Positions 16,463 to 18,466 of a DNA stretch of 24,000 bases are shown one piece after another. The DNA is from Bacillus mycoides (GTDB lineage: Bacteria; Bacillota; Bacilli; Bacillales; Bacillaceae_G). The notes below the pieces were generated by a model. The model searched no databases and was not told the origin of the DNA. It saw nothing but the letters and a program-made list of their open reading frames with translations. The position numbers and the translations under genes are program-made. The DNA lies in assembly GCF_001757995.1 (NCBI RefSeq), contig NZ_LXLV01000052.1, positions 26,424 through 50,423 of the forward strand, written 5' to 3'. Each line of letters starts with the position of its first letter. Positions within the stretch are counted from its first letter, which is position 1.

Positions 16463-16486
16463 GCTTATTAAACTCTTTTAATAAGT
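16463..16486. promoter_or_regulatory. palindromic operator candidate, copy 3 (CTTATTAAA-CTCT-TTTAATAAG)
   Basis: Perfect 9-bp arms lie at 16464-16472 and 16477-16485, immediately upstream of the ROK gene. A minus-strand TTGTCA (16492-16497) and TTTAAT within the right arm could be its -35 and -10. Confidence 0.6.
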
Positions 16487-16560
16487 TGCGTTGACAATAT
16501 ATCATACATCATTTTCTAAAGCAATAGAGATGATATATTTCCGCTCGATGCACTCCTTAT

Positions 16561-17754
16561 TTAGCTCCATTTATTCTCTCTCGTAACAGACGATACAATT
16601 CCAGACAAGAATACAAATAATAAAACAGCTAGCAAGGCATTGCGTATTCCGAAGACTTCCCCCAGTATACCTAAAAATGGTGGTCCGACTAAAAAGGCTG
16701 TATAACCGATTATAGAAACTGCAGCAACATTAGAAGTCGCATTTTCACGGTCATCTCCAGCAGCAGACAGACCAATTGGGAAACCTAGCGCTGCACCAAT
16801 CCCCCAAAGTATTACACCAAATGCCAGAAAATACGAGTTACTCCCAAATATTACGATTGAAATTCCTATGATAGCCATAATAATAGTAGCACGTACGACA
16901 ACGACACGACCGAAGTGATCAAGAAAATAACTACTACACATACGAGCTAATGTCATTGCCAATACAAAAATTGTGTACATAATAGAACCTGTCACTACAC
17001 TTTGCTCATGTCCATCTACCATCACAATAGGTAGCCAATCATTTGCACTTCCTTCTGCAAATGCCATCCCGAGTACAAAAACACCAATTAAAAGCACCTT
17101 CTTTTCCATACGTAAAGAAGTACGCTTCGCTCGCTTGTTGTTCCGCCTTTTCTCCTTCTTTCCTGTTCCATACGGAAGAAAACGATACACCATACATACA
17201 AGTAATACAAACACGACCGAAATCGCAAGAAACTGATACAAAATAGGAATATGAAACAAAGCTGCAACAGATCCGCTGAGCGCTCCTACTAAAGTTCCTA
17301 CACTAAAAAAACCGTGAAATTTCGGAAGAAGTGTTGTTCCTAATTTCTGCTCAATTGAAGAACCTTCTACATTCAATGAGACTTCCGCCAATCCATATCC
17401 TACTCCAAATACTATTAAACTACCAAAAGCCCCAATGCTAGAGACAAAATAAATATTAATACCTAAACAAAGCAATCCAACAATCATAAAAAACATACTG
17501 CCTATAATAACGTCTCTAGCTCCCTTACAGTCAATAAGATGACTTGCGCTCAGTAAACCAATTATTGAACCGACAGATAGTCCGAACAAAATCCAGCCCA
17601 TTTCTGCATTTGACACTGCTAAAATATCTCGCACCGCTGCTGTTCTTGAAATCCATGTAGCAAACGCGACACCTGGCAAAGCAAATAAGAGGAATAGAGC
17701 GTTTCGAGAGGCAAGTAATGTCTTTGTATGATTGTCCGCACTATATTTCTCCAT
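16561..17754 (-). CDS. MFS transporter
   Basis: The profile shows 12 TM-like segments with a central basic loop (GKKEKRRNNKRAKR). I prefer the ATG at 17754 (GAAAGGTG SD 6 nt upstream) over the GTG at 17763. Confidence 0.88.
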   Translation of the reverse strand: MEKYSADNHTKTLLASRNALFLLFALPGVAFATWISRTAAVRDILAVSNAEMGWILFGLSVGSIIGLLSASHLIDCKGARDVIIGSMFFMIVGLLCLGINIYFVSSIGAFGSLIVFGVGYGLAEVSLNVEGSSIEQKLGTTLLPKFHGFFSVGTLVGALSGSVAALFHIPILYQFLAISVVFVLLVCMVYRFLPYGTGKKEKRRNNKRAKRTSLRMEKKVLLIGVFVLGMAFAEGSANDWLPIVMVDGHEQSVVTGSIMYTIFVLAMTLARMCSSYFLDHFGRVVVVRATIIMAIIGISIVIFGSNSYFLAFGVILWGIGAALGFPIGLSAAGDDRENATSNVAAVSIIGYTAFLVGPPFLGILGEVFGIRNALLAVLLFVFLSGIVSSVTRENKWS

Positions 17755-17810
17755 ATGAAACACCTTTCAAATTGTCTATACGATAATTTACGAACTGGTG
17801 AAAACGCCCT

Positions 17811-18374
17811 TTATTCGTCTATCGTTTTAATAACTTTAGCTGGATTACCACCAACTACTGCATTATTAGGTACATCTTTTGTCACAACTGCCCCTGAAGC
17901 GATTACAACATTGTCTCCAATTGAAATACCAGGGTTAATAATGGCTCCCCCGCCAACCCAAACATTGTTACCAATCTTTACAGGTTTCCCATATTCTTTG
18001 CCAGAATTCCGCTCTACCGGATGTAAAGGATGAGTGGCAGTATAAATATGGACACCAGGTGCAAACATACAATTGTCACCGATTCGAACTTCACAAACGT
18101 CCAAAATAACACAATTGAAATTTGCAAAAAAACTCTTTCCAATGTGGATATTGTAGCCGTAATCGCAACGAAAATCAGGTTTAATGTGTGATTTCCCGTC
18201 AGCTGAAGAACCTAAAAGCTGATTTAATAACGTAAACCGTTGTTCATCTCCTGTCTCCATCGCCTCGTTATAAAGGCGTGTTAACCGTTTCGTTTCAATC
18301 CTATCAGCTACTAATTCTTCGTCATCCGCAATATACATTTCTCCCGCCAACATCTTTTCTTTCTCAGTTTTCAT
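17811..18374 (-). CDS. maa: maltose/galactoside O-acetyltransferase (hexapeptide-repeat family)
   Basis: GAAGGAG SD. The N-terminal Maa/LacA-type helix is MLAGEMY, followed by left-handed beta-helix repeats ([44 protein letters not shown]). Confidence 0.9.
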
Positions 18375-18406
18375 ATAATCATCTCCTTCGTTATCGAATG
18401 AATCAA

Positions 18407-18430
18407 ACTTATTAAATTAGTTTAATAAGT
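18407..18430. promoter_or_regulatory. palindromic operator candidate, copy 1 (ACTTATTAAA-TTAG-TTTAATAAGT)
   Basis: Perfect 10-bp inverted arms lie 33 nt upstream of the maa start codon. Confidence 0.6.
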
Positions 18431-18442
18431 GACTTTAATTTA

Positions 18443-18466
18443 ACTTATTAAACATGTTTAATAAGT
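18443..18466. promoter_or_regulatory. palindromic operator candidate, copy 2 (ACTTATTAAA-CATG-TTTAATAAGT)
   Basis: Perfect 10-bp inverted arms, centred 36 bp from copy 1. Confidence 0.6.

Follow-up and report, generated by a model that had tools for sequence, protein, structure and literature searches.

A conserved palindrome around a maa-MFS-ROK-VOC module of Bacillus mycoides is probably the operator of a ROK-family regulator without the zinc motif

What is the role of a palindrome that is repeated three times around a small group of genes, and which protein reads it? This question is raised by a locus of Bacillus mycoides (contig NZ_LXLV01000052.1), which we analysed in a window, that is, a whole stretch of DNA, of 24,000 nucleotides. 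The locus carries maa, for a maltose O-acetyltransferase-like protein, and genes for an MFS transporter, a ROK-family protein and a glyoxalase-like VOC protein, all four on the minus strand. Our comparisons make it highly probable that the ROK-family protein encoded at 15398-16438 uses the palindrome as its DNA operator. The regulatory model to which they point, and in which we have at least the same confidence, is that of an autoregulated, ligand-released repressor with a strictly local regulon, whose binding and repression we infer.

Two perfect palindromes of the form ACTTATTAAA-N4-TTTAATAAGT, with arms of 10 nucleotides around a 4-nucleotide spacer, were found at 18443-18466 and 18407-18430, and their centres are 36 bp apart. 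They are the predicted operators O1 and O2 of maa, respectively. A third copy at 16464-16485 has exact arms of 9 bp, the inner part of the full arms; the G at base 16463 disrupts the outermost pair. At full length (16463-16486), this copy is the predicted autoregulatory operator of ROK, and no strand is assigned to any of the three operators. The initial annotation had placed three copies at these positions, with the same distance between the centres and the same shorter arms by ROK, and had stated that the window holds no other. Both statements were confirmed, as the window yields three matches even when up to 3 mismatches are allowed, and these are the same three sites. Shuffled windows gave a mean of 0.15 such matches, and none of 100 shuffles reached three.

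In the genome of 5.82 Mb (35% G+C), the locus accounts for all close matches to the 24-mer, two of them exact and one with a single mismatch, and the next-best site differs at 3 positions. None of five control palindromes matched in composition has a site at 0 or 1 mismatch in the same genome. A dispersed, genome-wide AT-rich repeat was therefore rejected, and the palindrome is a locus-specific element. No extra regulon member was found elsewhere in the 5.8-Mb genome, where sites with 3-4 mismatches are no commoner than for the control palindromes.

The palindrome also accompanies the ROK gene in other genomes. We compared a family set of 105 genomes and a named-genome set of 80 loci, 56 of which lie outside the B. 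cereus group. In the family set, ROK orthologues were found in 29 of 70 other species of the genus, in 13 of 20 in the sister genus and in 1 of 9 in a third genus, and palindromes with at most 1 mismatch were present in 28 of 29, 13 of 13 and 1 of 1 of these ROK-positive genomes, respectively. The ROK-positive genomes have two to three near-exact palindromes each, and those listed are all at the locus. The exception is Bacillus toyonensis GXUN31-2 (CP170571.1), which carries a ROK orthologue of 93% identity with no palindrome beside it. In this genome, the DUF2785, NUDIX, VOC, ROK, MFS, maa and trpS genes abut head to tail on one strand (L009, L062) with zero intergenic DNA at the locus, although the orientations differ in all relatives. 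It is apparently an assembly of joined coding sequences, and the palindromes are therefore missing there. No exact palindrome was found in the ROK-negative genomes of the family set. Five of them carry one site each with 1 mismatch; these were dismissed as real sites, since their number is close to the chance estimate of about 6 made by hand. The expected co-occurrence of palindrome and ROK gene was thus seen, exact copies being confined to ROK-carrying genomes.

Next to ROK orthologues with identities of 43-95%, the 20 bases of the arms are retained and the spacer of 4 bases varies. The named loci include, besides the B. cereus group, Neobacillus, Metabacillus, Priestia, Niallia, Robertmurraya, Lederbergia, Oceanobacillus, Gracilibacillus, Paenibacillus, Cohnella and Exiguobacterium. 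Beyond the B. cereus group, 45 of the 56 loci have a perfect 20/20 site in the 200 bp upstream of ROK, and 54 of them have a site with no more than 3 mismatches in that interval. The 82 sites outside that group have 1.5-2.0 bits per position in the arms and 0.1-0.5 bits in the spacer and flanks; this profile is partly circular because the sites were picked by similarity, and the count of 45 of 56 is the unbiased one. The presence of the palindrome at orthologous clusters was thus borne out, in at least 10 genera and with invariant arms and a free spacer. At least 778 related proteins were found in one search, covering many soil Bacillales, plasmids and about 40% of the genus-level species set with the B. 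cereus group.

The operator is present too in plasmid-borne modules of Priestia megaterium and Bacillus sp. CMF21. The chromosome of P. megaterium (L098) carries ROK-MFS with a ROK protein 67% identical to that of the window, and plasmid NZ_CP085422.1 of other strains (L156) carries ROK-VOC-MFS with a ROK protein 55% identical to it. Both modules have the same operator arms, and cross-talk would be expected if they met in one cell. A symmetric variant with two mismatches, ATTTATTAAA-N4-TTTAATAAAT, was seen on the chromosome of Metabacillus rhizosphaerae (L146, 1621-1644) inside a different MFS gene, as a product of chance or a relic. As operators, this kind of 2-mismatch site in Metabacillus and another in Priestia, which is intergenic and lies before an ORF (open reading frame) without a Pfam match, were set aside as probable chance.

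Could the palindromes act as RNA rather than as DNA? As hairpins in 5' untranslated regions, they would influence mRNA stability or translation. They lie downstream of the predicted transcription starts and would be transcribed; each site can fold as a 10-bp hairpin and the pair can fold together (-5.6 and -19.6 kcal/mol, z about -3.5 to -4.5), and some variants alter both arms symmetrically (ACTTTTTAAA...TTTAAAAAGT). However, the stems are weak, with almost all pairs being A-U, and no Rfam family was matched. The 20 bases are identical over bacterial families with almost no compensatory drift, and many natural variants hit one arm only, which breaks the stem. Moreover, invariant arms with a free 4-nt centre are the pattern of a dimeric DNA-binding protein. 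We regard a role as RNA hairpins as hardly tenable, and the reading as a DNA operator is followed below.

Modules that are split over the genome indicate what the operator follows. In Paenibacillus castaneae, the locus is a ROK-maa operon without an MFS gene, and the 6.3 Mb contain only one other exact site, at a distance of 2.58 Mb. It precedes by 55 nt an MFS gene whose product is 66% identical to the usual ROK-linked MFS. The locus of Neobacillus cucumis also consists of ROK-maa, with extra sites on another contig in two pairs. One pair, spaced by 36 bp, stands before an MFS gene, and the second stands before a VOC gene whose product is 59.5% identical to that of the window. The palindrome marks unlinked MFS and VOC genes in these split modules and therefore tracks the functional gene set, as the operator of a trans-acting factor should. 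The VOC gene had been considered a doubtful member of the group at first. This doubt can be dropped, and VOC appears as a true regulon member because its unlinked orthologue in N. cucumis lies behind its own operator pair. The initial annotation had proposed dual operators at maa together with an autoregulatory operator at ROK, and this reading of the predicted sites therefore stands.

Is the ROK protein itself the binder? The operator might instead belong to a regulator encoded elsewhere, with ROK as a cargo gene or as an antirepressor without specific DNA binding, like MecR2 of Staphylococcus aureus. MecR2 (PDB 4IJA) is the closest solved relative by sequence (E 5.8e-16, residues 34-244), and it acts on another repressor, MecI, as an antirepressor and is not known to act on an operator. 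The location of site and ROK gene in one island also leaves the identity of the binder unproven. Against this, no other DNA-binding protein travels with the site, and exact sites are retained in no ROK-negative genome. ROK adjoins the site at 54 of the 56 loci while all other genes vary; it is the only gene constantly beside the operator and encodes the only protein with a DNA-binding domain in the maa, MFS, ROK and VOC core. Its winged-helix residues are nearly invariant, as is the operator, and this match was counted for ROK as the binder. Furthermore, the model of the ROK protein superposes in fold on the DNA-bound Lmo0178 of Listeria monocytogenes. Binding by another regulator is thus improbable, and the operator is best assigned to the ROK protein.

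The position of the operators relative to the promoters suggests how the ROK protein may act. The predicted maa promoter, on the minus strand, consists of a -35 box TTGCAT (18495-18500) and, after a 16-nt spacer, a -10 box TAACAT (18473-18478) preceded by TGt; it rests on consensus and on conservation in the orthologous loci of the B. cereus group, where relatives have TGcTAATAT 6 nt before the operator. O1 starts 7 nt past this -10 box, at about the predicted transcription start, and O2 ends 32 nt before the ATG of maa. The predicted ROK promoter, also on the minus strand, consists of a -35 box TTGCTT (16519-16524), a 17-nt spacer and a -10 box TATATT (16496-16501) preceded by TGa. TTGCTT or TTGTTT is conserved upstream of ROK in many genera, TGaTATAnT is found across genera 9 nt before the operator, and the operator covers about +4 to +27 of the predicted transcript. 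Upstream of ROK, the cassette of many genera reads TTG(C/T)TT, 17 nt, TGaTATAnT, about 9 nt and the operator, often followed by 12-13 nt and a second operator, then the ribosome-binding site and a GTG or TTG start. The basis of both promoter assignments is consensus and conservation, and an automated consensus promoter scan (at least 9/12 matches) lists neither of them. A TTGTCA/TTTAAT pair had been named earlier as a possible ROK promoter; this was not borne out, as its spacer has 19 nt and it shows no conservation, and the conserved TTGCTT-17-TGaTATATT lies just upstream of the operator.

Every operator begins 6-9 nt past a TG-extended -10 box and covers the start site, and therefore the protein should repress. 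Across the loci, tandem operators are spaced by 36 bp in 27 pairs, by 37 bp in 6 and by 35 bp in 2, which suggests cooperative binding of two dimers; conservation does not extend to long-range looping, to judge from the sequences compared. As no terminator is predicted in the stretch from the MFS gene to the ROK promoter, transcription from the maa promoter may continue into ROK-VOC. In the sister genus, where the gene order is operator-ROK-VOC-operators-MFS, a 46% orthologue of the window MFS lies behind tandem operators. The upstream regions of MFS in that genus carry up to three sites at 36-37 bp steps, with a recurrent symmetric variant ACTTTTTAAA-N4-TTTAAAAAGT before MFS (L036-L044, L054-L061), and a graded-affinity array is possible.

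We propose that the ROK protein would bind each 24-bp site, presumably as a dimer with one winged helix per 10-bp arm, and would repress by masking the transcription start and the early transcribed region. The two sites of the maa promoter would probably be filled cooperatively, and the one site of the ROK promoter would lead to negative autoregulation of ROK-VOC. The predicted regulon is local, with maa, MFS, ROK and VOC and nothing further in the genome. A small ligand in the sensor domain would free the repressor from DNA.

The ROK-family regulator (346 aa) is encoded at 15398-16438 on the minus strand. The longest ORF extends to 16462, but its ATG, which abuts the palindrome, is without a ribosome-binding site, and residues 1-8 of this ORF are not conserved among orthologues. 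The Shine-Dalgarno sequence AAGGCGGTG is followed after 8 nt by a GTG at 16438, and the orthologues use an equivalent GTG or TTG; translation probably begins at this GTG. The protein matches Pfam ROK (PF00480) with 66 bits against a threshold of 22.9, over profile positions 40-156 of 294 only. The N-terminal winged helix-turn-helix described in the initial annotation holds, with weak helix-turn-helix Pfam matches at residues 29-66 and three helices in the predicted model. The AF2 model (pLDDT 81.5) has a winged helix and a two-lobed ROK fold, and its single unreliable stretch is residues 237-255, the loop standing in for the zinc motif. In a Foldseek search with this model, the top 50 matches are all ROK proteins with repressors ranked first, and the structures closest to it are the operator-bound Lmo0178, TM1224, MecR2 and Mlc.

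At the position of VDLGGT in the glucokinase of the same genome, the ROK protein reads LAIFLEKNET, and DxGxT is absent. At the position of GEIGH...CNCGKSGCLE, it has GEISF and then unrelated sequence without Cys or His; the profile alignment of the two proteins spans the END loop and GEIS(F) and stops right before CNCGKSGCLE. None of 44 members of the subfamily (42-91% identity) has DxGxT or a Cys/His zinc cluster. E190-N191-D192, aligned to DND of the glucokinase, is invariant in these members. In G-E-I-S-F, which replaces ExGH, the Glu is invariant and the His is changed to Phe in nearly all of them. Almost no variation is seen in the helix-turn-helix and wing (SFPT.SKF, DDSSGGRRAKRY), in the END loop or in GxNGPGAG...GE. 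The loss of both motifs noted at first is therefore correct in the glucokinase alignment; what it implied for the kinase motif is not special. It is reported that DxGxT is altered in most ROK regulators and that the zinc motif is "largely conserved" in them (PMC3553997), and therefore the loss of the kinase motif is ordinary and a zinc-less regulator is unusual. On the sequences compared, the unusual features of this regulator are the missing zinc motif and the missing histidine of ExGH. In the same genome, a second ROK protein of 292 aa (G000:C9:139755-140600; L143, 1492-2370) is of the kinase type with FDIGGT and is likewise without the CxCG zinc cluster (GEWGNM...), and the glucokinase on C64 has the full set of ROK motifs.

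The gene maa (17811-18374, minus strand) encodes a maltose O-acetyltransferase-like hexapeptide acyltransferase of 187 aa with Pfam Mac and Hexapep matches. Its score of 293.8 bits against the NCBIfam Maa equivalog NF007499 is slightly under the cut-off of 314, and it is nearly identical to the chain of PDB 3HJJ, deposited as Maa, as judged by eye on the alignment. The maa copy linked to ROK forms a paralogue of its own (at least 84% identity), present in ROK-positive genomes only. A second maa paralogue of the same genome (G000:C66:131005-131556) is 66% identical to that of the window, has no palindrome listed nearby and is the copy carried by most ROK-negative species of the genus. The MFS transporter (400 aa, Pfam MFS_1) is encoded at 16561-17763 on the minus strand; it is intact in the window and has weak NCBIfam matches to an arabinose-transporter model and a multidrug-resistance model.

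The VOC gene (minus strand) lies at 14956-15336 for a product of 126 aa from Met11, which is most likely the start in the full ORF at 14956-15366. The product is a predicted glyoxalase I-like metalloenzyme (Pfam Glyoxalase), closely related to PDB 3E5D, a putative glyoxalase I of Listeria (E 2e-43), and it scores 38 bits against the GloA equivalog model with a cut-off of 165. Its H, E, H, E align with the conserved H, E, H, E of E. coli GlxI (1F9Z), whose metal ligands we take to be His5, Glu56, His74 and Glu122. In public records, these proteins are annotated simply as "ROK family protein", "VOC family protein" and "MFS transporter".

What the module does must be read from the composition of the regulon. 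Downstream of ROK and in its direction, 98 ORFs were scanned at the 56 loci beyond the B. cereus group. MFS genes were found at 43 of these loci, and there were 11 genes for VOC, 11 for Maa and 4 for Cof-type HAD phosphatases; the remaining partners are mostly singletons. The conserved core of the predicted regulon is ROK and MFS, with VOC and Maa as frequent additions and maa as an accessory gene. The Cof-type HAD genes follow ROK-MFS at four loci (L087, L094, L105, L140 and others were scanned). A streptomycin adenylyltransferase gene at one locus and cupredoxin-domain genes at three are same-direction neighbours of ROK. Three MFS lineages have been recruited, with a mutual identity of only about 23-24%.

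In the sensor, the Asn-Asp and the Glu with which ROK proteins contact the sugar are retained, but the zinc site is absent, and a sugar-like ligand is therefore probable. Maa and LacA acetylate non-metabolisable sugars. By analogy, we tentatively suggest that the module relieves the stress caused by a sugar or sugar analogue that is in excess or cannot be metabolised. In this role, the MFS would export the sugar and Maa would O-acetylate it, the Cof-type HAD of some relatives would dephosphorylate it, and VOC would handle a reactive by-product such as methylglyoxal.

Ordinary uptake, with the MFS importing a sugar nutrient that is sensed by the ROK repressor, as with XylR or NagC, has to be weighed against stress relief. 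It is reported that ROK regulators typically govern sugar uptake or catabolism (PMC3553997), and the usual ROK-linked MFS is weakly similar to sugar-acid and sugar-phosphate transporter models. However, no catabolic enzyme was found among the 98 partner ORFs of the 56 loci, and a kinase, isomerase, hydrolase or other catabolic gene is never in the regulon. The recurring partners are modifying or detoxifying enzymes (Maa, VOC and Cof-type HAD), the three recruited MFS lineages are non-orthologous, and MFS decays while maa-ROK-VOC persists in many B. cereus-group species. We consider uptake of a nutrient unlikely.

The layout of an autoregulated repressor with an MFS gene is also typical of efflux resistance, and the module might protect against a natural amino-sugar or aminoglycoside-like antibiotic that ROK senses, Maa acetylates and MFS exports. 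Some hexapeptide acetyltransferases related to Maa modify antibiotics, some VOC proteins bind or open them, and the module is scattered patchily among soil Bacillales, in part on plasmids. The streptomycin adenylyltransferase gene adjoining one locus agrees with this, but it is the lone resistance gene and may be there by chance. Moreover, Maa is near the bona fide maltose acetyltransferase model and not Vat or CatB, and VOC scores far under all Fos models. Protection against an antibiotic appears somewhat less likely again than uptake.

Several points weigh against the proposed regulation and the role in stress relief. The site and ROK share one island, and their co-occurrence is partly trivial linkage, from which only the two split regulons escape. 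We infer repression solely from the operator position. The ligand class is a guess, as the histidine of ExGH and the zinc site that shape the pocket are missing and the model is unreliable at 237-255. The regulon has no sugar-catabolic gene or known sugar exporter; none of the three MFS lineages matched a characterised transporter, and PDB sequence searches with two MFS types gave no match. The decay or deletion of MFS in many B. cereus-group species, with maa-ROK-VOC remaining, also indicates that the transporter is dispensable. In loci of this group (L007, L012, L022, L027-L032), MFS is present as fragments of 54-116 aa or is missing, and both operator positions are retained. L022, L029 and L032 have one operator only before maa.

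The borders of the module were also considered. A gene for a small DUF2651 membrane protein (14575-14937, minus strand, Pfam DUF2651) follows VOC. No terminator was predicted between the two genes, the next predicted one being at 14388-14416, and the DUF2651 gene adjoins VOC in just part of the B. cereus group. It is possibly co-transcribed with VOC, and its membership of the unit is uncertain. On the other side, a tryptophanyl-tRNA synthetase gene (18596-19633) is preceded by an Rfam T-box leader (162 bits; 19638-19846, minus strand), and its terminator (18586-18608) is located upstream of the -35 box of maa, at a distance of about 85 bp.

A ROK repressor with a palindromic operator is a well-known kind of system. 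What appears to be new here is a subfamily of zinc-less regulators with an almost invariant operator and a non-catabolic regulon. In the searchable literature, the letters of the palindrome are absent in the sense of an operator, and ROK with Maa in B. cereus gave nothing relevant. With this analysis, an uncharacterised subfamily of transcription factors gains a predicted operator, predicted promoters and a complete predicted regulon. It suggests that the zinc cluster, considered structurally necessary in Mlc-type repressors, is dispensable in a ROK regulator. Maa and the glyoxalase-like VOC, both of poorly understood role, would be tied to one sensor, and the inducer, once found, would point to the function of all four genes. 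The 20 invariant bases would also give a compact and portable repressor-operator pair, possibly useful as a genetic switch in Bacillus.

Among known systems, Lmo0178 of L. monocytogenes, a ROK repressor with solved structures (PDB 5F7P, 5F7Q with its operator and 5F7R with its inducer), is the best match of the ROK model (Foldseek E 1.8e-21, TM about 0.7), with the same winged helix and two-lobed sensor. The identity in the structural alignment is 15-18%, and the protein of the window is about 50 residues shorter, has its own predicted operator and regulon and is without the ExGH histidine and the Cys cluster. MecR2 is likewise a ROK-type protein without kinase function, and the paper on it contains no discussion of ROK motifs; an invariant operator accompanies the gene of the window. 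NagC, Mlc and XylR have AT-rich, paired operators and control sugar uptake or catabolism. These regulators share with the ROK protein a winged helix, a ROK sensor and an altered DxGxT, and ROK regulators are reported to bind palindromes of about 23 bp (PMC3553997). In contrast to them, the ROK protein of the window has no zinc motif and would control no catabolic gene, and its scores are far under the NagC and Mlc equivalog cut-offs (55.7 bits against 650 and 27 against 530, respectively).

These classical repressors need the zinc cluster; Cys mutants of Mlc lose function, according to work cited in PMC5458393. On the other hand, the ROK fold is viable without CxCGxxGCxE, as reported for the kinases NanK of Fusobacterium (5NCK), Lmo2764 of Listeria (4HTL) and NanK of S. 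aureus (PMC5458393). These kinases differ from the regulator described here in being enzymes with an intact DxGxT and no DNA-binding domain. In the glucose-phosphate stress response of E. coli, the sugar-sensing SgrR/SgrS induces the MFS exporter SetA and the Cof-type HAD phosphatase YigL (PMC4021124). The likeness to the module is a functional analogy only, since the regulators are non-homologous and the module is without a small RNA, and the MFS proteins of the module may be compared with SetA as sugar exporters by analogy only. It is possible, though we put it forward as a doubtful proposal, that this widespread regulon of the Bacillales is a specialised defence against sugars or sugar analogues that are toxic or present in excess, or against amino-sugar antibiotics of soil competitors. 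In such a defence, a zinc-free ROK protein would release its operator and thereby turn on export, O-acetylation, dephosphorylation and a glyoxalase-like enzyme, and its version against sugars might tentatively be viewed as a Gram-positive, protein-only counterpart of SgrR/SgrS-SetA-YigL.

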